NCBI GenBank assembly: GCA_022822375.1
Contig: JAJEBU010000101.1
Location: 5,234 to 69,233, forward strand
Direction: 5' to 3'
DNA length: 64,000 bases
Source of the DNA: Dehalococcoidia bacterium
GTDB taxonomy: Bacteria; Chloroflexota; Dehalococcoidia; Bin125
Positions 1 to 36,690 of this stretch are shown here, in pieces. Each line of letters starts with the position of its first letter. The stretch's first letter is position 1. Both the position numbers and the translations under genes were made by a program. The notes under the pieces were generated by a model. It ran no database searches. It saw only the letters and a list, made by a program, of their open reading frames with translations, and was not told the DNA's origin.

Positions 1-1
1 G

Positions 2-886: not shown

Positions 887-895
887 CGGCCATCG

Positions 896-2824
896 ATGTC
901 GGACTCTGCAAGCATTCCCGATGCTGACATCGCCCGTGCGCTGCAACGCGCCACGGATTGGTTGATCGATCAGCAGGATCCAGCCGGATTCTGGTGGGGC
1001 GAGCTGGAGTCGAACACCTCGATCACCGCTGAGTACCTGTTGTTGACGCACCACCTCGGGATCGCCGACCGGCGCCAATGGGATGGCATCGCGCGCTACT
1101 TGCGCGGTCGGCAGCGTCCCGAGGGCGACTGGGCGCAGTACTCGGATGGTCCAGGCGACGTGTCGACGTCGGTCGAGAGTTACTTTGCGCTCAAGCTGGC
1201 CGGCGACGACCCGGACTCGCCACACATGACGCGGGCGCGAGAGTGGATTTTGGCGCAAGGCGGCATCGTCGAGGCGCGGGTGTTCACGAAGATTTGGCTG
1301 GCGTTGTTCGGCGAGTTCGACTGGGATCGCCTGCCGGCGATGCCACCGTGGATCAATCTGCTGCCGAACTGGCTGCCGATCAATCTGTATGAGTTCGCGA
1401 GTTGGGCGCGGGCGACCATTGTCGGCATCACGGTGATCATGACCTTGCGTCCGACGGCAGCGCTGCCAGCCGGTGCGGGTGTCGGCGAGCTCTGGGTGAA
1501 ACCATCAGATCGACGACGCTTCGCCGTACCGACTCCGAAGAATCTGTTCTCGTCGGCAGGAGCGTTTCTGATCGTCGACAAGCTGCTGCGGTTGCTCGAC
1601 CGCAACCACATTCGGCCATTCGAGAATCGGGCGCTGGCCTTCTCGGAGCGCTGGCTGCTCGACCGACAGGAGGCGGACGGTTGCTGGGGCGGCATTCAAC
1701 CGCCCTGGGTCTACGCGATCCTGGCGCTGCGGGCGATGGGCTACTCGCTGGACCATCCCGTCATCCGACGCGCGCTGGGCGGGTTCGACCGCTTTACCTG
1801 GAAGCGCGACGAGGCGGACGGCGAGCACGTCTGGACGGAGAGTTGCCAATCGCCCGTCTGGGATACGTGCCTGGCGTCTGTCGGGTTGCTGGATGCCGGC
1901 CTCGATCCGCAGCATCCCGCGTTGCAGTCAGCGGCCCGCTGGATGTTGAACGAGCAGGTGCTCGCTGGCGGCGACTGGCAGGTCAAGAATCCGCAGACGC
2001 CGCCGGGCGGCTGGGCGTTCGAGTTTGACAACGATGTCTACCCGGACGTCGACGACACAGCCGTGGTCTTGATGGCGCTCGAACGCATTCCGATGGACGG
2101 CCTGGAGTCGGAGCGGCAGCTGGCATTGGAGCGGGGGCTGCACTGGATGCTCTCGATGCAGTCGTCGAACGGCGGCTGGGGCGCGTTCGACATCGACAAC
2201 GACAAGACGTTTCTGGCGGACATTCCCTTCGCAGACTTCGGAGAGCTGCTCGATCCACCGACGGCCGACGTGACCGCGCACGCTCTGGAGTACATCGGTC
2301 AGCTGGGCTACCGCGGCGAGTATCCGCCGGCCAGCCGCGGGTTGCGCTTCCTCTATGCGCTGCAGGAGCCTGATGGTTCCTGGTGGGGCCGCTGGGGGGT
2401 GAACTATCTCTATGGGTTGGGCGCGGCGCTGCCGGCAATCGAGGCGTTGGGCGAGCCGATGTCGGCCCCGCCGGTCCGGCGAGCAGTCGAGTGGTTGTTC
2501 CGGCACCAGCTCCCCGACGGCGGCTGGGGCGAGTCCTGCAACACCTATCACGATCCGTCGCTGCGCGGTCTGGGGCCGAGTACGCCGTCCCAGACGGCCT
2601 GGGCGCTGATGGCGCTGATCGCCGCCGGGGAAGCGGCGCACGAGTCGGTCGGACGCGGCATTCGCTACCTGATCGATCGGCAGCGCGAGGATGGCACGTG
2701 GGACGAGACGGAGTTCACGGGAACGGGCTTCCCGCGCGACTTCATGATCAACTATCACCTGTATCGGCACTACTTTCCGCTGATGGCGTTGGGACGCTAC
2801 GCGAAGGCGCTGGCGCCGCGCTGA
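896..2824 (+). CDS. shc: Squalene-hopene cyclase
   Basis: 642 aa. The catalytic 'DVDDTAVV' (DxDDTA) motif is present, with multiple QW repeats ('QxxxGxW'-like) and class II terpene cyclase length. It is adjacent to hpnCDE. Confidence 0.95.
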   Translation: MSDSASIPDADIARALQRATDWLIDQQDPAGFWWGELESNTSITAEYLLLTHHLGIADRRQWDGIARYLRGRQRPEGDWAQYSDGPGDVSTSVESYFALKLAGDDPDSPHMTRAREWILAQGGIVEARVFTKIWLALFGEFDWDRLPAMPPWINLLPNWLPINLYEFASWARATIVGITVIMTLRPTAALPAGAGVGELWVKPSDRRRFAVPTPKNLFSSAGAFLIVDKLLRLLDRNHIRPFENRALAFSERWLLDRQEADGCWGGIQPPWVYAILALRAMGYSLDHPVIRRALGGFDRFTWKRDEADGEHVWTESCQSPVWDTCLASVGLLDAGLDPQHPALQSAARWMLNEQVLAGGDWQVKNPQTPPGGWAFEFDNDVYPDVDDTAVVLMALERIPMDGLESERQLALERGLHWMLSMQSSNGGWGAFDIDNDKTFLADIPFADFGELLDPPTADVTAHALEYIGQLGYRGEYPPASRGLRFLYALQEPDGSWWGRWGVNYLYGLGAALPAIEALGEPMSAPPVRRAVEWLFRHQLPDGGWGESCNTYHDPSLRGLGPSTPSQTAWALMALIAAGEAAHESVGRGIRYLIDRQREDGTWDETEFTGTGFPRDFMINYHLYRHYFPLMALGRYAKALAPR

Positions 2825-3596: not shown

Positions 3597-3665
3597 CGTC
3601 GCGCGGCTCGTGAACCGTGGACGCTGAGCCACGCCACCGATAAACAGCGATGTGAGGAGAGCGAT

Positions 3666-3905: not shown

Positions 3906-3937
3906 TCAGATCCGCGCGAGCGAAGAACAGCGCGCTG

Positions 3938-4876
3938 ATGATCCGCGGCCCGGACGCCGGCACAGAGTCGAGCGATGCTGCCTTCGATGGCGGGCCAGAC
4001 GAGGCGCTGAGCTGGTGCGAGCGCTACTCGCGCAAGCACGGCGAGAACTTCACGGTCGTCAGCTGGTTCCTGCCGCGCGAGCTGCGGGCACCGATGTTCG
4101 CGGTCTACGCCTTCTGCCGATTCACTGACAACATCGGCGACGATGCGGGCGCGGACCCAGCCGAGCGCTTGGCGCGGCTCGACGCGTGGCAGGCCGATCT
4201 CGAGTGCGCCTTCGACGAGACACCTCCGCAGCACCCGATCAACGTCGCGTTACAGCACGTCGCACGGTCCAAACCGTTGCATGTCGACCCCTTTCGGCGG
4301 CTGATTGAGGCGAACCGGCTGGACCAACGGCAATCGCGCTATGACACGTTCCAGGACGTGTTGGCCTATTGCGATCTGTCGGCCAATCCAGTCGGCGAAA
4401 TGGTGCTGGCGCTGTGGGACGTCGACACGAGCACTGACGAGGGGCGCTATCGGATCGATCTGTCCAACGCGACCTGCACGGCGTTGCAGCTGTCGAATCA
4501 TTGGCAGGATGTGCGCCGCGATTGGCTGGACGCCGGGCGGCTCTATCTGCCGCTGGAGGATCTGCGCGATTTTGACCTCAGCGAGGACGACATCGGTCAA
4601 GGCATCGAGGATCGTCGTTGCCCCGCCGCCTTCCGCGAGATGATGCGCTTCCAGGTTGACCGCGCTGAGGCCTACTTCCGCAAGGGAGAGCGACTGCTGG
4701 ACGAGGTGCCGGATGAGTTAGCAATCGATCTGCGGCTGTTCACGGACGGCGGGCGCGCGGTGCTGCGGGCGATCGAGCAGCAGGACTACGACACGCTGAC
4801 GCGGCGGCCGCGGGTCAGCAAGCAGACGCGCGCCTGGCTGGCGTTGCGCGCCTTCGTGCAACTCAAACTACTCTGA
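3938..4876 (+). CDS. hpnC: Squalene synthase-like protein HpnC (hydroxysqualene synthase)
   Basis: 'YAFCRFTDNIGDD' Asp-rich motif of the squalene/phytoene synthase family. First of two tandem SQS-like genes before hpnE. Confidence 0.85.
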   Translation: MIRGPDAGTESSDAAFDGGPDEALSWCERYSRKHGENFTVVSWFLPRELRAPMFAVYAFCRFTDNIGDDAGADPAERLARLDAWQADLECAFDETPPQHPINVALQHVARSKPLHVDPFRRLIEANRLDQRQSRYDTFQDVLAYCDLSANPVGEMVLALWDVDTSTDEGRYRIDLSNATCTALQLSNHWQDVRRDWLDAGRLYLPLEDLRDFDLSEDDIGQGIEDRRCPAAFREMMRFQVDRAEAYFRKGERLLDEVPDELAIDLRLFTDGGRAVLRAIEQQDYDTLTRRPRVSKQTRAWLALRAFVQLKLL

Positions 4877-4881
4877 TCGCC

Positions 4882-5802
4882 ATGTCGTTCCTGCGCAGCA
4901 CCATGGACCCTGAGATCGCCGAGGCGTATCGCCGCTGCCAGGCGTTCACGCGCGAGCGGGCGACGAACTTCTATGTGGCGTTTTCAGCGCTGCCGCAGCG
5001 CAAGCGGCTCGCGATCTACGCCGCGTACGCCTTTGCGGGAACGGTCGACGACGCCGTTGACGACGCCGGAACGCAGGACGAACGGTCGGCAGCGCTGAGC
5101 ACTGCTCATGGTCTGCTGCGCGCGTCTTACGAGTCGGGCGGCGAGGGGGCAGAGCCCGTCTGGCTCGCCCGCGGCTTGGCCGATGCCGTTCGCAGCTTCG
5201 ACATTCCGCGTGAACACTTCGAGGAGCTCGTGCGCGGGATGGAACAGGACCTGACCACAACGCGCTATCAGACCTGGGACGATCTGGAGCAATACTGCTA
5301 CCGTGCGGCATCCGTGATTGGCCTGGTCTGCATCTGCATCTTCGGCTACGACCGCACGCGCTCAGCAGCCGCCACTCGGACGGCTGTGGCGATGGGCAAG
5401 GCGCTGCAGATCACGAACATCATGCGCGATGTGAAGGAAGACGCGGAGCGTGGGCGGATCTACATCGCCCAGGATGATCTGGCGCGGCACGGTGTGTCGG
5501 AGGGGAACATCCTCGGCGGCGTGTACGATGCTCCGTTTCGGGCGTTGATGGCCGACTACGCGCAGCGGGCGTACGCGCTGTACCGGGAGGGCAGCGATCT
5601 GATTCCGCTGCTCGACGGACCGCGCAGCCGGGCCTGTTGCAATGGGCTGCAAGGCGTGTATCGGATGATTCTGGACGAGATCGTCGCACGCGACTACGAC
5701 GTGCTGAGCCAGCGCGTGTCGCCGTCGCGCTCGGGTCGCGTGCTGCGCCTGCTGGAGCTGTGGCTGCTCGGCGCGCTGCCGAATCTCACGCGAGTCGGCT
5801 GA
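4882..5802 (+). CDS. hpnD: Squalene synthase-like protein HpnD (presqualene diphosphate synthase)
   Basis: 'YAFAGTVDDAVDD' and 'IMRDVKEDAERGRIY' motifs of the SQS/PSY family. Position between hpnC and hpnE. Confidence 0.85.
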   Translation: MSFLRSTMDPEIAEAYRRCQAFTRERATNFYVAFSALPQRKRLAIYAAYAFAGTVDDAVDDAGTQDERSAALSTAHGLLRASYESGGEGAEPVWLARGLADAVRSFDIPREHFEELVRGMEQDLTTTRYQTWDDLEQYCYRAASVIGLVCICIFGYDRTRSAAATRTAVAMGKALQITNIMRDVKEDAERGRIYIAQDDLARHGVSEGNILGGVYDAPFRALMADYAQRAYALYREGSDLIPLLDGPRSRACCNGLQGVYRMILDEIVARDYDVLSQRVSPSRSGRVLRLLELWLLGALPNLTRVG

Positions 5803-5808
5803 CCAGCG

Positions 5809-7206
5809 GTGACGAGCGGCGCGGCCCCGATCGCAGTCATCGGAGGCGGCTTGGCCGGGCTCACGGCCGCGCTTGACCTCGCCGAAGCGGGCAGCCGCGT
5901 GGCCCTCATCGAGCGCCGACCCTTCGTCGGCGGCAAGGCCTACTCCTTCGACGATCCCAACCATCACATTCAGCTGGACAATGGCCAGCACATCACGATG
6001 CGTTGCTGCACGGCGTTCCAGGCATTGCTGGAACGACTCGGCTGCGCCGACATCGTGCGCTACCAGGACGCCCTGTCAGTCGCAGTGATCGATCCAGAAT
6101 CGGCGGGTCGGCAGGTGAGCGTGCTCGCGCGCGCGGAAGTGGGTTGGTTGGGCCGCCTTGGCCCGCGTCTGTTGCCGGCGCCGCTGCATCTGGCGCCGTC
6201 GCTGACGATGTACGACCACCTGAGCACAGTGGAGAAGGCGAGGCTCGCACTGGCGCTGGAGCCGATTCGCCGCATGAGCGAGTCGGACCGCCGCGCGCTC
6301 GACCGGCAATCGTTCGCCGACTTTCTGCTCGCGCACCAGCAGACGCCGCGGGTCATCGAGCGGTTCTGGGACCTGATCGTCCTGCCCACCTGCAACGACC
6401 GCTCGGCCGACGTGTCGGCGGCGCAGGCGATTCAGGTCTTTCAGGAGGGGTTCAGCCGAGAATCGGCGGCGGCGGACATTGGCAACTTCGTTCGCGGCCT
6501 GGGCGAGGTCGCGGAGACCGCGCTGGCGCGTCTGCGCGAACGCGGCGGCGAGGTTCACCTCAACGCCGCTGCGTCGGCGCTCACGGTTGAGGGCAAGTCG
6601 GTGACCGCGCTCCGTTTCGGGCGCGATCAGGAGCTTGAGGTCAGCGGCGTGGTCGTGGCGCTGCCGCCGAAGCAGGCGATGACATTGATTCCCGCGGGCT
6701 GGCGTCGACGCGAGCCGTTCTGGCGGCTGGGGCAGTTTGAGGTGAGTCCGATCGTCAATGTGCACATGCGCTGGGATCGACCCGTGATGCAGCGGGACTT
6801 CGTGGCCGTGCTGGACGACGATGCTCAGTTCATCTTCAACCGATCAAAACTGCACGGCTGGAGCGACGAGCACTGGATCTCCGTCTCGCTGAGCGGCGCC
6901 CACGAGCTGGCGGCTCTGCCGCAGCCGGAGATCGCAGCGCGGGTTGAGCGCGCCGTCCGACGCGCGCTTCGCCGAACGCAGGACGCCGCGCTGCTGGCCT
7001 CGCGGGTGATCAAGGAGTCTGAAGCCACCTTCCGCCCCAAGCCGGGCATGGCGTCGCACCGACTGCGGGCTCGCACGTCGATTGCCAACCTGTTCCTGGC
7101 GGGGGCCTGGACAGCGACCGGTTGGCCGGCCACGATGGAGTCGGCGGTGCGCAGCGGACACGCAGCGGCCGCGGCGGTCCTGGAGCAGGAGCATTCCCAT
7201 GCCTGA
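5809..7206 (+). CDS. hpnE: FAD-dependent amine-oxidase-like hydroxysqualene dehydroxylase HpnE
   Basis: N-terminal 'IAVIGGGLAGLTAALDLAEAG' dinucleotide-binding motif. 465 aa, directly after hpnD. Confidence 0.85.
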   Translation: MTSGAAPIAVIGGGLAGLTAALDLAEAGSRVALIERRPFVGGKAYSFDDPNHHIQLDNGQHITMRCCTAFQALLERLGCADIVRYQDALSVAVIDPESAGRQVSVLARAEVGWLGRLGPRLLPAPLHLAPSLTMYDHLSTVEKARLALALEPIRRMSESDRRALDRQSFADFLLAHQQTPRVIERFWDLIVLPTCNDRSADVSAAQAIQVFQEGFSRESAAADIGNFVRGLGEVAETALARLRERGGEVHLNAAASALTVEGKSVTALRFGRDQELEVSGVVVALPPKQAMTLIPAGWRRREPFWRLGQFEVSPIVNVHMRWDRPVMQRDFVAVLDDDAQFIFNRSKLHGWSDEHWISVSLSGAHELAALPQPEIAARVERAVRRALRRTQDAALLASRVIKESEATFRPKPGMASHRLRARTSIANLFLAGAWTATGWPATMESAVRSGHAAAAAVLEQEHSHA

Positions 7207-12253: not shown

Positions 12254-13015
12254 CTAGCGGAACAGGTCCATCTCGGCCGGACGCACCAATGCTGAATGGT
12301 CGTGTTCCTCGACGGGAATGTTGAGTCCCCGCACGACGGCGACCGGCACTGCGTCGAGCTTGTTCATCACTGGCTCGGCGGCTGAGGCGAGCTCATCGAC
12401 GATCGCCATCTCGGTCACGCGCAGGTCGTAGCCTTCGGCGTCCACCTCGCCCACGTAGGAGCGAATCGGGTTCATCCCGCTCACGCCGATCGCCACATTC
12501 ATCAGACCGTTGCGCCAGGGACGCCCGAAGGTGTCGCTCACGATCACCGGCACATCGACTTGGCCGCGCGCCACCAGACCTTCGCGAATCCGCCGCGCCG
12601 ACGCAGATGAGTCGACCGGCAACAACGTGACCGCGTCGCCGCCGCCCACGTTGGACTGATCGACGCCCGCGTTGGCGCAGACCCAGCCCTCGCGGGTCTC
12701 CGAGAGGATCAGCCCGCGCGTCATCCGCACGATCCGTTTCGACTCTTGCAGCACCAGCTCGACCGCGCGCGGATCCCGCTCCCACTCATCTGCCCACACC
12801 GTCGCAAACTGGCCAGCGGTCACATCGTCGAGCGTGATCACCCGACCTTCCGCCTTGGAGATGATCTTCTGCGTGACGACCAGTACGTCGCCTGGCTCGA
12901 GCGGCGTCTCTTGCGCGCGCAGCGCGACATCGATCAGCTCCGCCAGGTCATCGCCATCCGCCACCTCGGGGATGCCGCCGACGGCGAAGACTCGGTACTC
13001 GGAGGGAGCGGCCAT
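12254..13015 (-). CDS. cofE: Coenzyme F420-0:L-glutamate ligase
   Basis: 'VLVVTQKIISKAEGR', 'GWVCANAGVDQSN' and 'PVIVSDTFGRPWRNG' are CofE/FbiB N-domain hallmarks. 253 aa. Confidence 0.85.
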   Translation of the reverse strand: MAAPSEYRVFAVGGIPEVADGDDLAELIDVALRAQETPLEPGDVLVVTQKIISKAEGRVITLDDVTAGQFATVWADEWERDPRAVELVLQESKRIVRMTRGLILSETREGWVCANAGVDQSNVGGGDAVTLLPVDSSASARRIREGLVARGQVDVPVIVSDTFGRPWRNGLMNVAIGVSGMNPIRSYVGEVDAEGYDLRVTEMAIVDELASAAEPVMNKLDAVPVAVVRGLNIPVEEHDHSALVRPAEMDLFR

Positions 13016-13680
13016 CAGTCGACTCCCACCATTCGAACGGCGGCCTGCGTCTTGTAGCGCATGTTCATGCCGATGATCAGGGCGGTCAGGTCTTCGACGA
13101 ACTTGGACATCGAGAGCGGTCCGGCGTCGATCGGCCGTAGGTCGGGCATCTTGCCGACGAGATCGACCACGGCGTGCTTGGCCTCGTCGTCATCGGCGGT
13201 GATCAGCACATCGCCTTCCATCGGATCGGAGAGCTTCTGCAGCTTGCGCGCTGAGAGATTGTGGAACGCGCCGACGACCTTGGCGTCGGGCAGCAGCGCC
13301 TGTGCCTGCTCGGTTGCCGATCCTTCGGGCACGTCGGCGATGCCGGGCACGCGGTGTTCCATGGTCAGCGGCACAGCCGCGTCGATGACCAGCTTGGAGC
13401 CGATCGCGTCGCGCAGATCGTTGAGTGTCGCTTCGTGGCCCTCGAACGGGACGACGATGATGACGACGTCGGATTGCTCGACGACGTCGCGGTTGACGCC
13501 GCCGCCGGCGTCGGCGCTGGCGCCGGCTTGTTCGACGGCATCGCGGACGGTTTGGGCGGCTTCTTCAGCGCGCTCGATCCGCCGCGATCCGATCAGGATT
13601 CGTTCGCCCGCGAATGCGAGCCGCATGGCCAACCCAAGTCCTTCTGGTCCGGTTCCGCCGATGAAGCCAATCGTCGCCAT
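13015..13680 (-). CDS. fno: NADPH-dependent F420 reductase (F420H2:NADP+ oxidoreductase)
   Basis: 'MATIGFIGGTGPEGLGLAMRLA' Rossmann N-terminus typical of Fno/NpdG. 221 aa. Its stop overlaps the cofE start (TGATG). A longer upstream start is less likely. Confidence 0.75.
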   Translation of the reverse strand: MATIGFIGGTGPEGLGLAMRLAFAGERILIGSRRIERAEEAAQTVRDAVEQAGASADAGGGVNRDVVEQSDVVIIVVPFEGHEATLNDLRDAIGSKLVIDAAVPLTMEHRVPGIADVPEGSATEQAQALLPDAKVVGAFHNLSARKLQKLSDPMEGDVLITADDDEAKHAVVDLVGKMPDLRPIDAGPLSMSKFVEDLTALIIGMNMRYKTQAAVRMVGVD

Positions 13681-13769
13681 GCCCACTCCCATTCTGCGCG
13701 TACACTGAATCGTGCGAGACCCGCACATCATCAGGCTAGCGCCACCGAGCGAAATTTCCGATCCGCGAC

Positions 13770-14636
13770 ATGACGAGCTTGGCCGCCAGCACACCGCCCG
13801 TGATCAGGCATCCGATTGAGCCTGAGGCGGCGCCGGCCGTCCAGCTCGAGGGCGCGGGCCTGACCTATGAGTCGAAGGACGGCATTCTGGAAGCGGTCGC
13901 GCCGACCACGTTGAAGATTCGGGCTGGCGAGTTTGTGGCGCTGGTCGGACCGTCCGGCTGCGGCAAGACGACCTTGATGCGGATGATCGCAGGGCTGATC
14001 GCGCCATCGATCGGCACGGCGCAGGTGTTTGGCGACTCGCCGCGCGTCGCACAGCAGCGCAAGCGTCTGGGGCTCGTCTTTCAGGAGCCGGCGTTGCTGG
14101 CCTGGCGCAGCGTCGAGGACAACATCCGTCTGGGCCTGGAGCTGAACCCGCGCGAGACCGATACGGGCATGAATATCGAGGAGCTGATCGAGGTCGTGGG
14201 CCTCACGGGCTTCGGGCGCTATCGGCCGGCGGAGCTGTCGGGCGGGATGCAGCAGCGGGTGGCGCTCGCGCGGGCGCTGGCGATCGATCCGCCGTTGCTG
14301 TTGCTGGACGAGCCGTTTGCGGCATTGGACGAGATCACGCGGGAGCAGATGCGTTACGAGCTGCTTCGCCTGTGGGGGGTCTCGCATAACGCGCAGGAAC
14401 CGCCGCGCTCGGCGATCTTCGTCACGCACTCGGTTGCAGAGGCGGTGGCCATCTCCGATCGAGTGCTGGTCATGTCGCCGCGTCCTGGTCGGATCATCGC
14501 CGATGTGCCGATCACGACGCCGCAGCCGCGCCGTCCCGAGCACGAACATTCAGACCGCTTTATCAACAATTGCGCGATTGTGCGCGCGGCGCTGCGGGCG
14601 CCGACCACACCGGCCGTTCCCCTGGACGCGGCCTGA
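13770..14636 (+). CDS. ABC transporter ATP-binding protein (NitT/TauT nitrate/sulfonate/bicarbonate family)
   Basis: Walker A 'GPSGCGKTT', signature 'LSGGMQQRVALARAL', Walker B 'LLLDEPFAALD'. Confidence 0.85.
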   Translation: MTSLAASTPPVIRHPIEPEAAPAVQLEGAGLTYESKDGILEAVAPTTLKIRAGEFVALVGPSGCGKTTLMRMIAGLIAPSIGTAQVFGDSPRVAQQRKRLGLVFQEPALLAWRSVEDNIRLGLELNPRETDTGMNIEELIEVVGLTGFGRYRPAELSGGMQQRVALARALAIDPPLLLLDEPFAALDEITREQMRYELLRLWGVSHNAQEPPRSAIFVTHSVAEAVAISDRVLVMSPRPGRIIADVPITTPQPRRPEHEHSDRFINNCAIVRAALRAPTTPAVPLDAA

Positions 14637-27461: not shown

Positions 27462-28469
27462 ATGGCTACCCCGCTCCGTCAAACGCTTCAAGTCGGCAAG
27501 TACGTGGTCGGTCAACGACTGCGCCGCACGAAGCGCTATCCGCTGGTGCTGATGCTCGAGCCGTTGCTGCAGTGCAACCTGGAGTGTGCGGGCTGCGGCA
27601 AGATTCAGCATCCCACGGATATCCTGCGCCGACGTCTGACGCCGCAGCAGTGCTGGGACGCGGTCGAGGAGTGCGGCGCGCCGGTCGTTGCGATCGCCGG
27701 CGGCGAGCCGTTGATCCATCAGGACATCGTGGAGATCGCGAACGGCTTCACGGATCGCAAGAAGTTCGTCTATCTCTGCACCAACGCGATCCTGCTGGAG
27801 CGCAAACTGGCGGACTTCGAGCCCAACCCGTACCTCACGTTCTCCGTGCATGTCGACGGCTTCGAGCAGGATCACGACGACTCGGTCTGCCGCGACGGTG
27901 TCTGGGAAGTGGCGATCCGCGCGATTGAAGCAGCGAAGGCGCGCGGCTTCCGCGTGACCACGAACAGCACGTTCTTCCTCGGCGCGCAGCCCGAGCGGAT
28001 TCGGATGATGTTCGACAAGCTGATGGAGATCGGCGTCGATGGGCTGATGATCTCACCGGGCTATCCCTACGAGAAGGCGCCCGACCAGGAGCACTTCCTG
28101 GCCCGCAATCAGACGAAAGAACTGTTCCGCGACATCCTGAATGATCCGCCGAAGCACTGGAGCTTCAACCACTCTGAGCTGTTCCTCGATTTCCTGAAGG
28201 GCGAGATCGAATACGACTGCACACCGTGGGGCAATCCGACGTATACGGTCTTCGGCTGGCAGCGTCCGTGCTACCTCATGGACGAGGGCTACGCGGAGAG
28301 CTTCCAGGAGCTGATCGACGAGACCGAATGGGAGAACTACGGCGTGGCTTCGGGGAATCCCAAGTGCGTGGACTGCATGGTCCACTCGGGCTACGAGGCG
28401 TCGGCGGTGATCGACGCGACGACCAACCTCAAGGCGGGCCTGCGCAGCTTCGCTGGTTCGCTTCGCTAG
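27462..28469 (+). CDS. hpnH: Adenosylhopane synthase, hopanoid-associated radical SAM protein HpnH
   Basis: 'RYPLVLMLEPLLQCNLECAGCGKIQHP' is the HpnH N-terminal radical SAM CxxxCxxC motif in its characteristic context. 335 aa. Confidence 0.9.
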   Translation: MATPLRQTLQVGKYVVGQRLRRTKRYPLVLMLEPLLQCNLECAGCGKIQHPTDILRRRLTPQQCWDAVEECGAPVVAIAGGEPLIHQDIVEIANGFTDRKKFVYLCTNAILLERKLADFEPNPYLTFSVHVDGFEQDHDDSVCRDGVWEVAIRAIEAAKARGFRVTTNSTFFLGAQPERIRMMFDKLMEIGVDGLMISPGYPYEKAPDQEHFLARNQTKELFRDILNDPPKHWSFNHSELFLDFLKGEIEYDCTPWGNPTYTVFGWQRPCYLMDEGYAESFQELIDETEWENYGVASGNPKCVDCMVHSGYEASAVIDATTNLKAGLRSFAGSLR

Positions 28470-28486: not shown

Positions 28487-29257
28487 TTAGACCAGTCGGA
28501 AGCGCACGCCACCGAGCATGATCGTCGACTGATCCTCCAACACCCGCAGCTCATGGTGGCGGGCGGCTGCGATCACGTGATCGCGGTCGACCACCGATAC
28601 ATCCAGTCCGCCCAGTCCGTCGCCGCGGCCGTCGGCGTCTTCGACGAAGCGCAGCACTGCGTCGTCGAGCTCGATCGTGGGGACACCGCCGTCCGACGAC
28701 ACAGGCCGCTGGACCACCTCTGACCAGCGGGCGGCCATCGCGGCCGGGTCGCTGCTCTGCAGCTCGGCTGCGGTCAACGCTCGGGCGACGTGATCGCGGC
28801 GGGACTCGGTGACATGCTCGTGCGGTCCGGCGGGGTTCCAGGGGCCGTCGGGCGCGTCGCCGCCGCGGTTCCAGCGCAGCTCGGCGATCGCGCCGGGGAC
28901 ATCCTTGGGATGCAGCTGAATGCCGTTGGTCTCGTCGCTCGCGGAGTCGAGCACCACGCGGATGCCGAGCGCCGCGACGTGATTGCGGCGTTCGACGATG
29001 TTGTCGCACTGCATGATGACCATGTAGCCGCCGTCTCCGCCGCGGCGCTGGATGTAGCGTCCGCCGGCGGTGCCGGGCTGGAATGGCGAGACGACTTCGA
29101 GGAATCCGTTGCCGATCGGCATCAGAAAGTTGTGGAGTCCGAAGCGGGCGAGGCCGGGATCACGGTGGCAGACCTCGAGGCCAAAGACACCGCGGAGATG
29201 CGACTCAACGTGGTCGAGGTCCTGCGCGACGAGGCAGATTTGGCGCATCCGCAGCAT
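28487..29257 (-). CDS. VOC (glyoxalase/bleomycin-resistance/dioxygenase) family protein
   Basis: Tandem beta-alpha-beta-beta-beta modules with 'FLMPIGNGFLEVVSP' typical of the glyoxalase-like domain. Confidence 0.55.
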   Translation of the reverse strand: MLRMRQICLVAQDLDHVESHLRGVFGLEVCHRDPGLARFGLHNFLMPIGNGFLEVVSPFQPGTAGGRYIQRRGGDGGYMVIMQCDNIVERRNHVAALGIRVVLDSASDETNGIQLHPKDVPGAIAELRWNRGGDAPDGPWNPAGPHEHVTESRRDHVARALTAAELQSSDPAAMAARWSEVVQRPVSSDGGVPTIELDDAVLRFVEDADGRGDGLGGLDVSVVDRDHVIAAARHHELRVLEDQSTIMLGGVRFRLV

Positions 29258-29272
29258 GTCGGACTCCTTCCG

Positions 29273-30058
29273 CTAGCGGCCGGTGAAGACCGGGCGGCGC
29301 TTCTCGACGAAGGCACGGCGCGCCTCGATCGAGTCTTCCGTCTCACCGACGCGGCGCATACGGTCCGCCTCGCGTCGGACGGCTTCCGAGAGCGGGATGG
29401 TGAAGGCATCGTTGAGGTTGCGCTTGATGCCGGCGATGGCGCCCGGATGCGAGTCTCGCAGCTGGGCGGCAATCTGCAGCACGTTGGGCATCAGTTCTTC
29501 TGGGTCGAAGACGCCGTTGGCCAGACCCAGCTCGCGAGCCTGTTCGGCCTGGACGCGGTCGGGCAGCAGGTACATTTCGCGCGCCTTGCCCATCCCAACG
29601 AGGCGGGGGAGGGTCCATGTGCCGCCGAAATCGCCCGAGAATCCGACCTTGAGGAACGCGGTGTAGAGGTATGCGGTCGTCGACATATAGCGCAGGTCGC
29701 AGGCCAGCGTCAGCGAGCAACCGGCACCGGCGGCACCGCCGTTGATCGCGGCGATCGTCGGTTTGGGCATCTCGTGCAGCAGCACCGAGGCGCGTTCCTG
29801 GTTGGTCAGCGAATAGATGCTCTGCTCCAGGTTGCGGATGTCACCGCGACCGGTGTCTTTGAGGTCTCCACCGGCGCAGAACAGCCGGCCGGCGCCGGTC
29901 AGGATCACGACCCGCACCTCGTCATCGGCGGCGGCCGCCTCAATGGCCAGCGGCAGCTCGTTGAGCAATGTGCCGTTGAGGGCGTTGAGCGACTCAGGCC
30001 GGTTGAGCGTGATCGTGCAGATGCCGTCGTCGATGTCGTAGAGCAGCGTTTCGTACAT
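29273..30058 (-). CDS. Enoyl-CoA hydratase/isomerase (crotonase family)
   Basis: 'VVILTGAGRLFCAGGDLKD' oxyanion-hole motif. Start at 30058 (GAGGAcgcacATG). An upstream start at 30112 is also possible. Confidence 0.8.
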   Translation of the reverse strand: MYETLLYDIDDGICTITLNRPESLNALNGTLLNELPLAIEAAAADDEVRVVILTGAGRLFCAGGDLKDTGRGDIRNLEQSIYSLTNQERASVLLHEMPKPTIAAINGGAAGAGCSLTLACDLRYMSTTAYLYTAFLKVGFSGDFGGTWTLPRLVGMGKAREMYLLPDRVQAEQARELGLANGVFDPEELMPNVLQIAAQLRDSHPGAIAGIKRNLNDAFTIPLSEAVRREADRMRRVGETEDSIEARRAFVEKRRPVFTGR

Positions 30059-30184
30059 GTGCGTCCTCATCGGGCTGGCGATCAGTCTGGTCAGTTCCAG
30101 TGTAGCCAGCATGCCGCTTCGGCATTCGCGCCATAAGCGAACCGCGACGCCGCGTACGACGATCCGCTGGCGTAGACTGAGCCC

Positions 30185-30898
30185 ATGCTCACGATCACAG
30201 CGGCGTTGTCATGGGAGTCGCGCGCGGCGCGGGCCGGCCAAGCGATCGCTGGACGCGGACGCGTGCGATTGATGACCTCAGGCGTCGGCCCGCAGCGAGC
30301 GCGCGATGCGGCAGAAGAGCTGATCGACCGGGGCGAGGCCACGGGGGTGATCAGCATCGGCGTCGCGGGCGGATTGACCAACGATCTGCGCCGACCCTCG
30401 ATCACCGTGCCCGATCAGATCATCCGCCAGTCCGATGGAGCGGTGTTCGAGCCCGACATCGAGCTGCGCAAGCAGACATTTCGCCTGCTGAACCGTTCAG
30501 ACATCCCCTGGCACTCGGTGATCAGTATCACGACGCCGAAGATTCTGTTCACCAAGCGGGAGAAGCGGGACGCAGCAGCGTCAGGCGCGCAGATCGTGCA
30601 GATGGAAGATGCCGAATGGGCCGATGTGTGCTCGGCGGCGGGCGTGCCATTCGCCTCGGTGCGGGTGGTGATGGACGCGCTCGACGACGACATTCCGACG
30701 GAAGTGGTGGGCTGGGGCGGCAATCCGTCGGCGCTGGACATCGCGATGAGCGCGTTTCGGCGTCCGCGTCTGCTGCCGGAGCTCGTCTCGCTCGGTCTGC
30801 AGCGACAGTCGGCGTTGAGCGTGCTGGAACGGGCCATGACGCTGATCATTCCGTCGCTCGCGCCCGCGCGAGCCGACCAAACGGCCGCGGCCGACTAG
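30185..30898 (+). CDS. hpnG: Hopanoid-associated phosphorylase/nucleosidase HpnG (PNP/UDP/MTA phosphorylase family)
   Basis: 'VISIGVAGGL' PNP_UDP_1 motif. About 237 aa, immediately upstream of hpnA and near hpnH. Confidence 0.7.
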   Translation: MLTITAALSWESRAARAGQAIAGRGRVRLMTSGVGPQRARDAAEELIDRGEATGVISIGVAGGLTNDLRRPSITVPDQIIRQSDGAVFEPDIELRKQTFRLLNRSDIPWHSVISITTPKILFTKREKRDAAASGAQIVQMEDAEWADVCSAAGVPFASVRVVMDALDDDIPTEVVGWGGNPSALDIAMSAFRRPRLLPELVSLGLQRQSALSVLERAMTLIIPSLAPARADQTAAAD

Positions 30899-30929: not shown

Positions 30930-31931
30930 ATGCGCCGGGTCATGGTCAGCGGAGCGAGCGGATTCATCGGCGCGCACGTCGTCCGATCCGCGTTGGATGC
31001 GGGCGCGGAGGTGCGCGCGCTCGTCCGGCCGCGCAGTGATCTGAGCAACCTGGACGGTCTGCCCATCGAGCTGGTGCACGGCGATCTCACTGACGCGGCG
31101 TCGCTGCGCGACGCGCTCGACGGGATGGACACGCTCTTTCACGTCGCGGCGCGCTATGACCTGAGCCGCCGCGCCCGTCGCGACGCCTTTGCAGCCAACG
31201 TGGATGGCACGCGGGAGCTGATGCTGGCCGCCCTGAGGTCGCAGGTTGACCGAGTCGTGCACACGTCGTCGGTGGCTGCGGTTGGTCCGCCGCTCGATCC
31301 ACAGCGTCCAGCGGATGAATCGCAATGGGCGAGCGCTGACGATGCGCCGGGCCCGTACGAGGCGACGAAGATCATGAGCGAGCGCCTGGTGTTCGGCCTC
31401 GTGCGGTCAGAGGGATTGCCAGCCGTCACGGTCTTGCCGACCGCGCCGATCGGCCCGCTCGATGTCAAGCCCACGCCCACGGGGCGGTTGATTCGTGATG
31501 CGGCACAGGGCGCGATGCCGGCGTACATCGCCTCCGCAGGGCTCAACGTGGTGCACGTCCGCGACGTCGCGGCTGGCCACGTCGCCGCGGCGACGCAGGG
31601 TCGCGTGGGCAAGCGTTACATTCTGGGCCACCGCGAGGGCAATCTGACGCTGCGTCAGATCATCGAGCGCGCCGCTGCCGCCGGCGGCGTGCGGCCGCCT
31701 CGCCTCGCCATGCCTGCGTCCGTCGCGTACCTCGCGGCGGTCGTCGACGAGTACCTGCTCAGCGCCCTCACGCGTCAGCAACCGCGAGCCACCGTCGCCG
31801 GCGTCCGACTGGCCAGGCATCGACATTGGTTCGATCCGAGCAAGGCGATTGCCGAGTTGGCGTTGCCGCAGACGCCTCTGGCTGACGCCTTCGCTGACGC
31901 CGTCAATTGGTTCGATACGCTGGATCGATGA
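30930..31931 (+). CDS. hpnA: Hopanoid-associated NAD-dependent sugar epimerase/dehydratase HpnA
   Basis: 'MVSGASGFIGAHVV', 'YEATKIMSE' (YxxxK) and 'LPTAPIGPLDVKPTPTGRLI' match the HpnA subfamily. Confidence 0.85.
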   Translation: MRRVMVSGASGFIGAHVVRSALDAGAEVRALVRPRSDLSNLDGLPIELVHGDLTDAASLRDALDGMDTLFHVAARYDLSRRARRDAFAANVDGTRELMLAALRSQVDRVVHTSSVAAVGPPLDPQRPADESQWASADDAPGPYEATKIMSERLVFGLVRSEGLPAVTVLPTAPIGPLDVKPTPTGRLIRDAAQGAMPAYIASAGLNVVHVRDVAAGHVAAATQGRVGKRYILGHREGNLTLRQIIERAAAAGGVRPPRLAMPASVAYLAAVVDEYLLSALTRQQPRATVAGVRLARHRHWFDPSKAIAELALPQTPLADAFADAVNWFDTLDR

Positions 31932-32806
31932 CGACTCCAGCAACACGCACCGTCCTCATCACCGGCGCGAACAGCGGCATTGGTCAGGCGGCAGCCACCG
32001 AGTTGGCGCGGCGCGGCTGGCGCGTCTTCGCGACAGCTCGCTCTCCTGAACGGGGCGACATCGCGGTGTCGCAGATTCGGGAGGCTAGCGGATCAAGCGC
32101 GGTCGAACTGCTCGAACTTGACCTCGCATCCTTCGCCTCGGTCAGACGCGCCGCCGACGAGTTCCTGGAGCGCAGCGAACGGCTCGACGCGCTGGTCAAC
32201 AACGCCGGAGTGATCCTCTCCGAACGGACGCTGACGGAAGACGGCCTCGAGTCGACCATGCAGGTCAACCACTTCGGGCACTTCCTGCTGACATCTCTGC
32301 TGTTGCCGACGGTGCTGCAGAGCGCTGAACCTTGCGTGGTCAATGTCAGCAGCATCGTCCACCAACGCGCAGAGCGGATGCCGCTCGATGATCTCTCACT
32401 CGAGCGTCGTTGGGGCGCGATGTATCCCTACGCGGTGAGCAAGCTGGCCAACGTGCTCTTCACCCGCGAGCTGCACAGACGTTATGCGAGCCAGAATCTC
32501 GCCACGTTTGCGGTACATCCGGGCGGTGTCCGCACCGGCTTCGGCCGCGACGGAGACGTTCGCGGGCTGCTTGGCAGATTGATGCCTCTGGCGGGTCCGC
32601 TGATGATGTCGCCAGCGCGCGGCGCGGCGCCGATCGTCGAGCTCGCCGTAGACGCTCGGCATCGCGCTCATTCGGGCTCGTACTTCAGCCGTCACAAGCG
32701 ACAAGATCCCAGCCGTGCCGCACAACGCGATGATGACGCCCGCAGTCTCTGGGAGCGTTCGCTCGAGCTCACGGACGCGTCCTGGCCGGCGGAGTCACCC
32801 GCCTAA
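31928..32806 (+). CDS. Classical short-chain dehydrogenase/reductase (SDR), paralog 1
   Basis: 'VLITGANSGIGQAAA' (TGxxxGxG), 'NNAG' and 'YAVSKLANVLF' (YxxxK). Its ATG overlaps the hpnA stop (ATGA). Confidence 0.85.
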   Translation: MTTPATRTVLITGANSGIGQAAATELARRGWRVFATARSPERGDIAVSQIREASGSSAVELLELDLASFASVRRAADEFLERSERLDALVNNAGVILSERTLTEDGLESTMQVNHFGHFLLTSLLLPTVLQSAEPCVVNVSSIVHQRAERMPLDDLSLERRWGAMYPYAVSKLANVLFTRELHRRYASQNLATFAVHPGGVRTGFGRDGDVRGLLGRLMPLAGPLMMSPARGAAPIVELAVDARHRAHSGSYFSRHKRQDPSRAAQRDDDARSLWERSLELTDASWPAESPA

Positions 32807-32844
32807 TCGCACGACGCGGCCAGCGCGTTCCGTACACTGTCGGC

Positions 32845-33708
32845 ATGACTACATCATCACCACGTACCGTCCTCATCACTGGCGCCACGAGCGGCATCGG
32901 ACAGGCGGCGGCAGCCTCGCTCGCCGAGTCCGGTTGGCGCGTGCTGATCGCCGCCCGCAACCCGCGACGAGCACAGGCAACACTCTCCCAGATTCGCCGC
33001 GAGACCCGCTCGGAGCTGGTCGAATCTGTGTCAATGGACCTCGCCTCCTTCGACTCCGTCCGCGAGGGCGCGGCAGCGGTGCTGGAGCAAGCGCCGAGTC
33101 TGGATGTCTTGATCAACAACGCCGGACTCACCAACAGCGAGCGGCAACTGACGGTTGACGGCCACGAGATGATGATGCAGACGAATCACTTCTCGCACGC
33201 CCTGCTGACTTCGCTGTTGCTGCCGCGGCTGTTGGAGTCGGACGATGCGCGCGTGGTCAACGTGAGCTCGCGGACGTATGAGCAGGCCGGCGACTTTCCG
33301 ATTGACGATCTCAGGTTCGAGCGGCGCTGGGGCGCGTTTTGGCCCTACACGGTGACCAAGCTGGCCAACATCCTGTTCACGAACGAGCTCCACCGCCGCA
33401 CGCACGAGCACGGCTTGGCGGCCTTCTCGGTGCATCCGGGGGTTGTGAACACCAACTTCCAGCAGAACATGCCGATTGGTCTGCGGGTGGCGCTGAAGAT
33501 CGCGCGGCCGCTGCTGAAGACGCCCAAACGCGGCGCGGAACCAGTCGTCGAGCTCGCGGCCAGCGCGGCGCGACGCTCCGACGCCGGCGCGTACTTCGAT
33601 CTGCACAAGCGCGTCGTGCCGCAAGCGCACGCCACTGATCGCGCGGTCGCCGAGCGTCTATGGGAGGCGACCAACGAGATCACCGGCGCCGAATGGCCGT
33701 CGTCATGA
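32845..33708 (+). CDS. Classical short-chain dehydrogenase/reductase (SDR), paralog 2
   Basis: 'VLITGATSGIGQAAA', 'NNAG' and 'YTVTKLANILF'. Colinear and roughly half identical to paralog 1. Confidence 0.85.
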   Translation: MTTSSPRTVLITGATSGIGQAAAASLAESGWRVLIAARNPRRAQATLSQIRRETRSELVESVSMDLASFDSVREGAAAVLEQAPSLDVLINNAGLTNSERQLTVDGHEMMMQTNHFSHALLTSLLLPRLLESDDARVVNVSSRTYEQAGDFPIDDLRFERRWGAFWPYTVTKLANILFTNELHRRTHEHGLAAFSVHPGVVNTNFQQNMPIGLRVALKIARPLLKTPKRGAEPVVELAASAARRSDAGAYFDLHKRVVPQAHATDRAVAERLWEATNEITGAEWPSS

Positions 33709-34202
33709 CGATTGACAGCCGCGACGAGCTGATCACTGCGTTGGAGTCGGACGCCGAGAGCCTTGAGTCGGCCGTGTCGGCATTGCCGGAGGAGGCCTTC
33801 GAGCGGGGCGTGTACGAGCACGGCTGGAACGCTCGGCAGCTGCTCGCGCACATCGCGGCGATCGAGTGGACGTATCCACGCCTGATCGAACGCGCAGAAC
33901 AGCGAACGGCAGGAGACGATGTTCCCCAGGGCGGCGGAGCCGGCTTCGACATGGACGCCTACAACGCCAAGCAGGTCGCGCGACGCGACGATCTGCCTGT
34001 GGAGCAACTGATGACCGAGTTTCGCCGCAACCGCGCGGCCACGATCGATGCGGTGCGGGGCGCGGACGAGGCGTTGCTGGCGCAGGCCACACGTTCAGCG
34101 GGCGGCGTCGAGGGCACGTTGCTGGATGTGTTGATCAGCGTCACCGTCGGGCATGTCCGCGATCATGCAGACGATCTGCTGCGAGGGGCCGGCTCCGACT
34201 GA
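33705..34202 (+). CDS. DinB/YfiT-like (DinB_2) metal-dependent four-helix-bundle protein
   Basis: 'WNARQLLAHIAAIEWTYPRLIE' DinB-like motif. Its ATG overlaps the SDR2 stop (ATGA). Confidence 0.55.
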   Translation: MTIDSRDELITALESDAESLESAVSALPEEAFERGVYEHGWNARQLLAHIAAIEWTYPRLIERAEQRTAGDDVPQGGGAGFDMDAYNAKQVARRDDLPVEQLMTEFRRNRAATIDAVRGADEALLAQATRSAGGVEGTLLDVLISVTVGHVRDHADDLLRGAGSD

Positions 34203-34218: not shown

Positions 34219-35400
34219 CTACTGACGCGGCAGCTGCAAGCCTCGAGTGGCGATGATGTTGCGCTGAATCTCGCTCGTGCCGGCGGCGATGGTGCTGGGC
34301 ACGCTCGACATGTAGGCGCGGCCGATACGGGCGGCGATCGGGGCGCCGGGGTCATCGGGATCGATCCGCTGGCTGTGCAGACCCATCATGTTGACGCCGA
34401 AGCGCGCCACACGCTGGCCGAGCTCGGATCCGAACATCTTCGACATCGAGGCCTCGTGGTTGGGCACCAGCTCCTGCGACTGCATCCAGACGACGCGGTA
34501 GGAGATGAGTCGCGAGATTTCCGACTCGATCATCAGGTTGGCGAGGCCGTTGCGGACGCCGGGGTCGTCGATCATCTTTGCCCCGCCATGGATGCCAGGG
34601 CGTTCGGAGGCGTACTCGGTCATCAGCTCGACGCTCTTGCGGGAGGTGGCGGACCAGGCGACTCCGGAGCGCTCGAAGTCGAGCAGCGTCGCGGCGACGT
34701 ACCAGCCGCGGTTGTACTCGCCCATCATGTTGGCGGCGGGCACGCGCACGTCGGTGAAGTAGACCTCGTTGAAGCCATGCTCGCCGAGCATGTTGATCAG
34801 CGGCCGCACCTCGATGCCCGGCGTGTTCATGTCGAGCAGGAAGTACGAGATGCCGCGATGCTTGGGCGCCTCAGGATCGGTGCGCGTGAGCACGTGAATC
34901 CAGTCGGCGTGATGGGCGCCAGATGTCCAGATCTTCTGACCGTTGATCACGAAGTCGTCACCATCGCGCACGGCGCGAGTCTGCAATCCGGCGAGGTCGG
35001 AGCCGTTGCCCGGCTCCGAGAATCCCTGCGCCCAGTATGACTCGGCGTTGGCGATGCGGGGGAGGTGCTCTTTGCGCTGCTCTTCGGTGCCGTGAAGCAT
35101 CAGACACGGCCCGACCATCGAGATGCCCTGCCCGCCGGAACCGGGAGCGCCGCGATAGGCAGCTTCCTCGCGGTAGATCATTTGTTGGATGTGGCTCGCG
35201 CCGCGTCCGCCGTACTCCTCGGGCCAGGCCATGGTCAGCCAGCCCTTGGAGGCGGCGCGCTTCTCGAAGGCGCGCTCGGCCTCGAACTGGGAGTCGTCGC
35301 CCGGCTCGTTCGAGCCGGCGGCCGGGACCCAGTTGTTGTCGATGAAGTCCACGACCTCACCGCGGAAGGAATCGTCGGCTTCGGTGAATTTGTAGTCCAA
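34219..35400 (-). CDS. Acyl-CoA dehydrogenase
   Basis: 'DYKFTEADDSFRGEVVDF' N-terminus, 'WTSGAHHADW', 'EVYFTDVRVPAANMMGE' and C-terminal 'IAAGTSEIQRNIIA'. TTG start with GGAG ribosome-binding site at 35400. The longer 713-aa ORF is an unlikely extension. Confidence 0.85.
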   Translation of the reverse strand: MDYKFTEADDSFRGEVVDFIDNNWVPAAGSNEPGDDSQFEAERAFEKRAASKGWLTMAWPEEYGGRGASHIQQMIYREEAAYRGAPGSGGQGISMVGPCLMLHGTEEQRKEHLPRIANAESYWAQGFSEPGNGSDLAGLQTRAVRDGDDFVINGQKIWTSGAHHADWIHVLTRTDPEAPKHRGISYFLLDMNTPGIEVRPLINMLGEHGFNEVYFTDVRVPAANMMGEYNRGWYVAATLLDFERSGVAWSATSRKSVELMTEYASERPGIHGGAKMIDDPGVRNGLANLMIESEISRLISYRVVWMQSQELVPNHEASMSKMFGSELGQRVARFGVNMMGLHSQRIDPDDPGAPIAARIGRAYMSSVPSTIAAGTSEIQRNIIATRGLQLPRQ

Positions 35401-35502
35401 GATCAGCTCCAACCCAATAGCGTGCAAGCGTTGCCAGTATAGCCGCAGCGAGACGGCGTCCCGGTCGGTTGTCGGCACACGGGTCGCCACTACGATGGAT
35501 CG

Positions 35503-36690
35503 ATGGACGCGTGGGACGCGGTCGTGATCGGAGCGGGGCCAGCGGGCGCGAACGCAGCGCGGCGACTGGCGGACGGCGGCGCATCGACGCTGCTGCTGGA
35601 GCAGCAGAGACTCCCGCGCTACAAGGCGTGCGGCGGCGGCGTACCGGCGCGCACGCTGCAACTGCTCGGCGACCTCGACATCTCTGCGGTCAGCGAGGGA
35701 CACGTCGACACGATCGACGTGTCCCGCTTTGGACAGCACCAGTTCCGCAAGACATCCGACCGTCTGCTGGCGTGGATGGTGATGCGCGACCGCTTCGATC
35801 AGTTCCTGACCGAGCGAGCGGCGGCTTCTGGTGCGCAGGTGCGGGACGCAACAGCGGTGCAATCGATCGCGCCGGCCGAGTCGTGCTACGAGATCGAGAC
35901 GCCGACGGGCATCGTCCGCGCCCGCCACGTGGTCGCCGCCGACGGCGCGACCGGACCGACGGCGCGCTGGCTCCAGATTCCGTCTGCCAAAACCCGAAGC
36001 GCCGCCTACGAGGTGGAGGTGGCCGCACCACCCCGCGCGCTGGATCACTGGCGCCGCACGGCCAATGTCGATATCGGTTACCGACCATGGGGCTACGGCT
36101 GGGTGTTCCCGAAGGCCGGCGCGTTGTCGATCGGCGTTGTGACCAGTCCCAGGCATGGCCGCGGCATCCGCAAGCACACCGATCGCTACCTGTCGCGCCT
36201 CGGACTCGCCGAGGCGAGCGTGTTGAACGTGCGGGGGCATCCGATTCGTTATCGGCGTTCGACCAACGAGCCGGTCGCCGCCGAGCGGGCGCTGCTGCTC
36301 GGTGACGCCGCGGGGCTGGCCGACGAGTTCACGGCCGAGGGCATTGCGTATGCCGTGCACTCAGCCAACCTCGCCGCCGCGGCGGTGTTGGCTGACGACC
36401 GTCCCGCCGAGAGCTACACGGCGATGGTCGATGGGGAGATTCAGCCGGAACTGAACGCCGCGCGGACGGTGTCGCGGCTCTACTACTGGTGCGTGACGAA
36501 GTGGCCGTGGCTGGCGTTGAGGACATCGAAGCACGTCAACTACCTGTGGCGGGCGTTTTTTCGTGTGATGCGCGGTGAAAGTACGTATCTTGCGGAGTTA
36601 ACACGGTGGATCGGGCCGCGCTTCGCCGGGCGGCTCGGAGCGACGGTCGATGAGCTGGGGAACGAGCGAGATCGACGATGGACGTTCTGA
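35503..36690 (+). CDS. Geranylgeranyl reductase family FAD-dependent oxidoreductase
   Basis: 'WDAVVIGAGPAGANAARRLADGGASTLLLEQ...YKACGGGVP' GGR-family N-terminus. 395 aa. Confidence 0.75.
   Translation: MDAWDAVVIGAGPAGANAARRLADGGASTLLLEQQRLPRYKACGGGVPARTLQLLGDLDISAVSEGHVDTIDVSRFGQHQFRKTSDRLLAWMVMRDRFDQFLTERAAASGAQVRDATAVQSIAPAESCYEIETPTGIVRARHVVAADGATGPTARWLQIPSAKTRSAAYEVEVAAPPRALDHWRRTANVDIGYRPWGYGWVFPKAGALSIGVVTSPRHGRGIRKHTDRYLSRLGLAEASVLNVRGHPIRYRRSTNEPVAAERALLLGDAAGLADEFTAEGIAYAVHSANLAAAAVLADDRPAESYTAMVDGEIQPELNAARTVSRLYYWCVTKWPWLALRTSKHVNYLWRAFFRVMRGESTYLAELTRWIGPRFAGRLGATVDELGNERDRRWTF

Follow-up and report, generated by a model that had tools for sequence, protein, structure and literature searches.

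The window analysed here, a 64,000-nt stretch of contig JAJEBU010000101.1 from a Dehalococcoidia bacterium (Chloroflexota), contains two adjacent genes, SDR1 (31928..32806) and SDR2 (32845..33708), both on the plus strand and downstream of the hopanoid-associated gene hpnA. They encode predicted classical short-chain dehydrogenases/reductases (SDRs) of 292 aa (type 1, clade A) and 287 aa (type 2, clade D), which are two paralogues of an ordinary enzyme type, both with intact catalytic motifs. The best explanation of the locus as a whole, which we put forward tentatively and would not yet call probable, is that these NADP(H)-type paralogues belong to an hpn operon, have a role at the hopanoid side chain and serve as overlapping isoforms.

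Comparison of the two proteins by BLASTP revealed a colinear alignment with 152 identities in 288 positions (53%, E = 2e-89) and a single gap of two residues. This similarity is far beyond chance; at the DNA level the identity is 67%. Both proteins pass the gathering cut-off of PF00106 (adh_short; 26.6 bits), SDR1 with 121.6 bits (E = 3.8e-35) and SDR2 with 122.7 bits (E = 1.7e-35). The motifs TGxxxGxG (residues 12-19) and NNAG (residues 91-94) and the catalytic tetrad N114, S142, Y168 and K172, the last two forming YxxxK, stand at the same positions in SDR1 and SDR2, and all of them are unchanged across 18 aligned homologues. A previous sequence-only reading had described tandem, colinear SDRs of near-equal length and about 50% identity at 31928-33708, carrying the three motifs and following hpnA. 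The coordinates and the motifs proved correct, and the upstream gene indeed reaches the HpnA model TIGR03466, if only just (369.3 bits vs a cut-off of 367.65). An inactivating substitution in the tetrad of one copy, which by its own terms would have refuted the same reading, is not there; N-S-Y-K is intact in both. G+C at third codon positions is high (0.74 and 0.81 for the two genes), and on this coding signal, together with the intact motifs, we rejected the view that one copy is a pseudogene. No further copy of this type was found in the window.

The similarity between the two proteins is unevenly distributed. Identity amounts to 60-64% in residues 1-45 and 91-180, and is lowest in residues 46-90 and 181-292 (44-47%, with 44% in the latter stretch). 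Relative to SDR1, two residues are deleted from the substrate loop of SDR2. An AlphaFold2 model of SDR1 (pLDDT 91.5) has a single-domain Rossmann fold of the size expected for about 250-300 residues, with alternating strand-helix order, and its top matches in the PDB are all SDRs. A lid at residues of about 200-225, modelled with low confidence, lies within the divergent stretch 181-292. Because this stretch contains the lid and because SDR2 carries the loop deletion, it is plausible that substrate handling differs somewhat between the two enzymes.

The SDR1 model superposes best on light-dependent protochlorophyllide reductase (LPOR) and on 3rd5, then on carbonyl reductases, and nearly all of these structures were solved with NADP(H). 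The protein in 3rd5 is an uncharacterised SDR of Mycobacterium paratuberculosis that matches the two SDRs also in sequence (E = 8e-37 and 4e-34). LPOR is the closest solved fold of known function (Foldseek E about 1e-22, TM 0.8-0.85). It is an NADPH-dependent classical SDR that acts on a large, hydrophobic, membrane-associated substrate and performs a light-driven reduction of a C=C bond. However, its sequence match to SDR1 and SDR2 is mostly confined to the N-terminal 130-150 residues, and the LPOR model TIGR01289 gives 101.4 and 94.1 bits, respectively, vs a cut-off of 331, in the N-terminal half only. We rejected an LPOR function, as the scores are below the cut-off, the context lacks chlorophyll genes and nothing suggests C=C reduction under light. 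The best sequence matches, near full length, are the "oxidoreductase" subfamilies PRK06197, PRK06196 and PRK05854, which share the length, the motifs and the C-terminal extension. Even the best of them, PRK06197, is reached with only 208.2 bits (SDR1) and 207.1 bits (SDR2) vs a cut-off of 268, so that by the NCBI rule the two SDRs are not members; indeed, neither protein reaches the curated cut-off of any NCBIfam model. No hopanoid link or substrate is on record for these relatives. SDR1 and SDR2 are best explained as members of a branch with LPOR and the PRK06197-like oxidoreductases.

In classical SDRs, a basic residue just after strand beta-2, with no acidic residue at its end, marks a preference for NADP(H). 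Residues 34-38 read FATAR in SDR1 and LIAAR in SDR2. Since Arg38 is invariant and the end of beta-2 has no acidic residue, we infer that both enzymes are of the NADP(H) type.

The two genes stand in a same-strand run consisting of an hpnG-like gene, hpnA, SDR1, SDR2 and a DinB-like gene. The hpnG-like gene (30185..30898, plus strand) encodes a nucleoside phosphorylase that matches HpnG (TIGR03468; E = 3.7e-32, 111.6 bits) below the cut-off of 187.1; in relatives the corresponding genes contain a PNP_UDP_1 domain. The hpnA gene (30930..31931, plus strand) also matches PF01370 and PF01073. The last gene of the run (33705..34202, plus strand) encodes a DinB-like/MDMPI_N metal-binding protein of 165 aa (PF12867 DinB_2, PF11716 MDMPI_N). 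Four-nucleotide ATGA overlaps exist at the hpnA/SDR1 and SDR2/DinB-like junctions, and the remaining gaps measure 31 nt (hpnG-like to hpnA) and 38 nt (SDR1 to SDR2). A scan of the plus strand from the hpnG-like through the DinB-like gene revealed no terminator-like site. A promoter scan returned no sigma-70-like sites, the sigma-70 consensus being uninformative for this phylum. Altogether, the run looks like one operon, and it places the SDRs next to recognised hpn genes. HpnA is itself an extended SDR ("sugar epimerase") and thus shares the superfamily and the operon with SDR1 and SDR2. However, with about 333 aa it belongs to the epimerase/3-beta-HSD type, while SDR1 and SDR2 are classical SDRs (PF00106), and they cannot be aligned with it as orthologues.

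Beside the window we read 11 distinct related loci (L081, L083-L086, L088-L092 and L099). An exact look-up of the SDR1 sequence of the window returned no entry, and the 99% relative P0001 was taken in its place. The best database matches of the SDRs have no assigned function, and the few source names given are Chloroflexi or Chloroflexota bacterium (four clade-D matches). The order hpnG-hpnA, SDR(s), DinB-like gene is kept in all 11 loci, with hpnA always preceding the SDR(s) and the DinB-like gene always directly 3' of them; the 4-nt overlap between hpnA and SDR1 recurs in most relatives. The block persists down to 57-58% identity of SDR1 and 65-66% identity of HpnA. At this lower end are L090 (HpnA 66%, SDR1 57%), where an ORF of 120 aa stands between hpnA and the SDR, and L091 (HpnA 65%, SDR1 58%), where a toxin-antitoxin pair occupies this place and hpnH is not adjacent. 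In L091 (1-3956 and 7317-7995) an ORF of 8042 aa is found in place of hpnH, and the toxin-antitoxin pair is of the Gp49/HI1420 kind. The DinB-like protein has conserved His residues in the alignment, and its gene is translationally coupled to the final SDR in all relatives.

PMC12583986 describes the enzyme converting ribosylhopane to bacteriohopanetetrol (BHT) as not established, and hpnA, hpnB and hpnL as genes without established function. As the SDRs are joined to hpnG-hpnA in an operon-like run, it is reasonable to suppose that they act on a hopanoid side chain, and we regard some role of SDR1 and SDR2 at the hopanoid side chain as quite possible, if still short of probable. They would be co-transcribed with the hpnG-like gene, hpnA and the DinB-like gene in an uncultured Chloroflexota bacterium that also carries shc, hpnCDE and hpnH, and they would most likely reduce a carbonyl group or oxidise an alcohol on the polar C35 side chain. 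If one reaction has to be singled out, it would be the reduction of the open-chain aldehyde form of ribosylhopane to BHT. A conversion of ribosylhopane to BHT in a cell-free system was reportedly described by Bodlenner et al. in 2015, to go by the title. Both the hopanoid substrate and the specific reaction are what we infer here, and reduction of ribosylhopane in particular by these enzymes is, in our estimate, unlikely. The two copies would be overlapping isoforms differing mainly in the substrate loop and the C-terminal part.

A possible parallel exists in Acidobacteria, where an hpnA-hpnG cluster is followed by "ug1", which encodes a Zn-dependent alcohol dehydrogenase (about 370 aa; PMC5462960). 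By its published description, ug1 occupies the same slot relative to hpnA/hpnG in another phylum, and it too encodes an NAD(P)-dependent alcohol/aldehyde oxidoreductase. However, as a medium-chain Zn-dependent enzyme it has a fold unrelated to that of SDR1 and SDR2. An oxidoreductase with another fold at this place in a second phylum would fit the view that the position houses a side-chain reductase. It is tempting to speculate that the hpnA-linked SDR clade is the NADPH-dependent ribosylhopane (formylhopane) reductase for BHT in this Chloroflexota lineage, non-homologous to the Acidobacterial enzyme, and that its types differ in substrate or in product stereochemistry; stated in this full form, the proposal is distinctly unlikely. 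Separately, on a plasmid of Roseomonas marmotae (L095, 22945-29255) a Zn-dependent alcohol dehydrogenase gene has the same orientation as hpnA and lies about 4 kb past it, with two copies of IS701 in between. The arrangement recalls that of ug1.

Several points weigh against a role of the SDRs in hopanoid synthesis or in the ribosylhopane step. A review figure shows the conversion of ribosylhopane to BHT as non-enzymatic (PMC13459092), and hpnA itself has been proposed for this reduction (PMC5462960). In the literature we found no paper linking a classical SDR to hopanoids. The association of the SDRs with hpn genes was seen in one lineage and did not recur in any independent lineage or phylum compared. 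Among the relatives about 20 kb around the SDRs are collinear, including clearly unrelated genes for NifU, an M20 peptidase and an HhH-GPD glycosylase, so that a conserved neighbourhood taken alone proves little. No homologue of SDR1 or SDR2 lies within 15-20 kb of hpnH in five hopanoid loci (Burkholderiales, Acetobacteraceae, Azospirillum, Methylobacterium and Streptomyces), and in the two annotated ones hpnA is followed by a glycosyltransferase gene. A scan of a genome collection with the SDR alignment listed 80 distant SDR loci from many phyla, none of them beside hpn genes; these matches share generic motifs (NNAG, NHF), and the identity among the matches listed is at most 49%. P0120, which at 54% is as close to SDR1 as SDR2 is, lies amid unrelated genes. 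Since there is no characterised close homologue, no substrate can be transferred by homology. It is because of the one-lineage link, the five loci without the SDR, the 80 distant relatives and P0120 that our estimate of a hopanoid role is kept modest.

Two observations on these more distant loci may be added. In L124 (5987-8855) P0120 has as neighbours two more classical SDR genes, which are encoded on the opposite strand; the context is not a hopanoid one, and the group is an unrelated SDR cluster. On a Solirubrobacteraceae contig (L021, 9709-11185) an SDR match made up of joined pieces extends over about 1.2 kb and overlaps an HpnA-like match (37%); a frameshift, a gene fusion or faulty assembly may lie behind this.

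The first alternative, which we hold to be somewhat unlikely, is that the SDRs and the DinB-like protein are general carbonyl-reducing or detoxifying enzymes, unconnected with hopanoids, and that they follow hpnA only through inherited gene order. The collinearity of the whole 20-kb neighbourhood, housekeeping genes included, speaks for it, as do the wider SDR family without a hopanoid link and the hopanoid clusters of other phyla that lack this SDR. Further, the SDR-DinB junction with its 4-nt overlap is the tightest, and it stays intact in L090 and L091, where other genes have entered between hpnA and the SDR. However, hpnA and SDR1 overlap by 4 nt as well, here and in most relatives, and the SDR clade was never found without hpnG-hpnA upstream (11 of 11 loci). 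In L091, moreover, the block stays intact while both flanks change. A metagenome scan with the DinB-like protein returned one close locus (L099) and 24 distant DinB relatives (29-45% identity), and these 24 have neither SDR nor hpn neighbours. Because the distant DinB relatives lack an SDR partner, SDR and DinB do not form a widespread stand-alone module.

The second alternative concerns the reason for keeping two copies, on which the copy number among the relatives bears directly. Eight of the 11 related loci carry one SDR (L081, L083, L084, L088, L089, L090, L091 and L092). The three pairs (L085, L086 and L099) represent three combinations of type and order: type 1 then type 2 in L085, the 99% twin of the window, and in the window itself; a chimera then type 1 in L086; and a B-like type-2 gene then a chimera in L099. 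Bootstrapped neighbour-joining trees place SDR1 together with the single-copy genes from L081 and L083 (90%), and SDR2 with L084, L088, the upstream gene of L086, P0116 and P0038 (96%). Each of the two clades thus holds single-copy genes that follow hpnA in related genomes, and each SDR shares 68-77% identity with genes from other genomes vs 53% with its own neighbour. These separate, well supported clades and the closer relatives elsewhere therefore indicate that the split between SDR1 and SDR2 is old and not the outcome of a recent local duplication. A phylogeny of the pair had been suggested as a check by the sequence-only reading; SDR1 and SDR2 are true paralogues, but they did not arise by recent duplication in place.

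Segment analysis identified four mosaic genes with a breakpoint near residue 90: L084 (10001-10867), the upstream gene of L086 (7050-7916), the downstream gene of L099 (6150-7016) and P0038. Their residues 1-90 are of type 1, with 76-91% identity to SDR1 or L089 vs 38-57% to the pure type-2 protein of L088. From residue 91 to the end they are of type 2, and here L084 and the upstream gene of L086 are 84-100% identical to L088. The trees of the two segments conflict with 89-100% bootstrap support. In a tree of flanking genes L086, with its pair of SDRs, and L088, with only one, are nevertheless sisters (100%); the window stands beside L092 (96%), likewise a locus with one SDR. The simplest reading of these comparisons would be that the tandem array formed once the L090/L091 lineages had branched off, and that repeated loss, reordering and recombination between copies followed. 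Given neighbour-joining trees alone, transfer between related lineages is a possible alternative to loss and reordering of the array. In such a birth-and-death array, a single copy, be it of type 1, of type 2 or chimeric, would suffice in most relatives.

The sequence-only reading had taken the retained duplication as a sign of sub-functionalisation, for example two consecutive reductions or different hopanoid side-chain substrates. Carried further, this would mean that both enzymes are needed, be it for consecutive reductions or for distinct, indispensable reactions at the side chain. Both copies are intact, their strongest divergence is in the substrate loop and the C-terminal part (181-292: 44%), and both are kept with 99% protein identity in the 99%-identical sister contig L085, all of which agrees with this proposal. 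It is contradicted by the eight loci with only one SDR of either type, by the mixed types and orders of the pairs and by the existence of chimeric single genes. Since the SDRs were lost alternately among the relatives, a pathway needing both copies is unlikely, and we consider the proposal improbable. What survives of it is the hopanoid side-chain role, as a hypothesis that the hpnG-hpnA run makes reasonable, and possibly a difference in substrate-loop preferences, whereas the idea of two needed steps falls away. Interchangeable isoforms, possibly with different substrate-loop preferences, fit better than two obligatory reductions, because most loci have single SDRs, the pairs are mixed in type and order, and chimeras exist.

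A third alternative keeps the hopanoid side chain as the target and changes the chemistry: the SDRs could act on side-chain hydroxyls, for example by an oxidation and re-reduction that would epimerise C-34 and yield BHT stereoisomers, or by providing a keto intermediate for HpnA or the DinB-like protein. Secondary-alcohol/ketone chemistry is common among classical SDRs, and three genes of the SDR superfamily stand here in a row. BHT occurs as 34R and 34S isomers, and parts of PMC12583986 mention them without naming a gene. However, this alternative shares the lineage-restricted context of the preferred explanation, and the sequence does not distinguish aldehyde from ketone substrates; we judge it to be very unlikely. 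Finally, a recent local tandem duplication with one redundant, decaying copy, suggested by the adjacency, common strand and near-equal length of the genes, is extremely improbable and was rejected on the phylogeny and the motif checks, as it is contradicted by the low identity at the protein and DNA levels, the closer relatives in other genomes, the two supported clades, the complete catalytic residues with high third-position G+C in both genes, and the 14 synonymous vs 4 non-synonymous differences between SDR1 and its counterpart in L085. For SDR2 the corresponding numbers are 4 and 3, too few differences to read a ratio of non-synonymous to synonymous change.

The window consists of chromosomal DNA with about 66% G+C, containing rpoA, secY and metK. 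Its hopanoid core cluster (1-7206) starts with a polyprenyl synthase gene cut at the window edge, followed by shc (887..2824, plus strand), whose product is a squalene-hopene cyclase with DVDDTA and QW motifs (TIGR01507, 775.6 bits vs a cut-off of 431), and by genes matching the HpnC, HpnD and HpnE models (3890-7206). Genes for a GNAT acetyltransferase and a dodecin are located between shc and hpnC. About 20 kb away from this core is the hpnH/hpnG/hpnA sub-cluster, in which hpnH (27462..28469, plus strand) encodes an adenosylhopane synthase (TIGR03470, 516 bits vs a cut-off of 225). Among the ORFs of the window scanned, none turned up as hpnI, J, K, O, N, P or R, and an Rfam scan of the window returned no matches. 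On the minus strand at 12254-13803 there are genes similar to F420-0:gamma-glutamyl ligase and to F420-dependent NADP oxidoreductase.

Some neighbours of the operon recur among the relatives. A Glyoxalase_3-like gene and an enoyl-CoA hydratase gene (28487-30112, minus strand) are found upstream of hpnG in every related locus and stand between hpnH and hpnG, except in L091, which has no adjacent hpnH. On the other side of the run, a 713-aa ORF (34219-36360, minus strand) is an over-extended frame; the real gene encodes an acyl-CoA dehydrogenase of 393 aa (about 34219-35400), and divergent from it lies a gene for a flavoprotein of the geranylgeranyl-reductase family (35503-36690, plus strand). 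Both genes adjoin the operon in most relatives. Compared with the sister contig (L085, 9015-10004), hpnA shows 15 non-synonymous and 12 synonymous changes, and hpnH 0 and 5, respectively, which points to local fast evolution or recombination of hpnA relative to L085.

In summary, this is a real, ordinary pair of classical SDRs. What is new is an undescribed hpnA-linked SDR clade in Chloroflexota, a modestly interesting candidate for the step from ribosylhopane to BHT; the copy-number and recombination history of its members is tidy and not surprising. BHT and its derivatives rank among the major biomarkers used in geochemistry. If the proposed role is true, a dedicated reductase encoded in the hpnG-hpnA operon would be a concrete and cheaply testable candidate for the BHT step. 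Together with the Acidobacterial Zn-dependent alcohol dehydrogenase, it would suggest that different phyla have recruited different reductases for the same slot, and it would be of use in predicting which uncultured Chloroflexota are able to produce extended hopanoids. If, on the other hand, the link reflects inherited gene order only, SDR1 and SDR2 would be an ordinary pair of paralogues, instructive for the way in which such copies have been lost and recombined.

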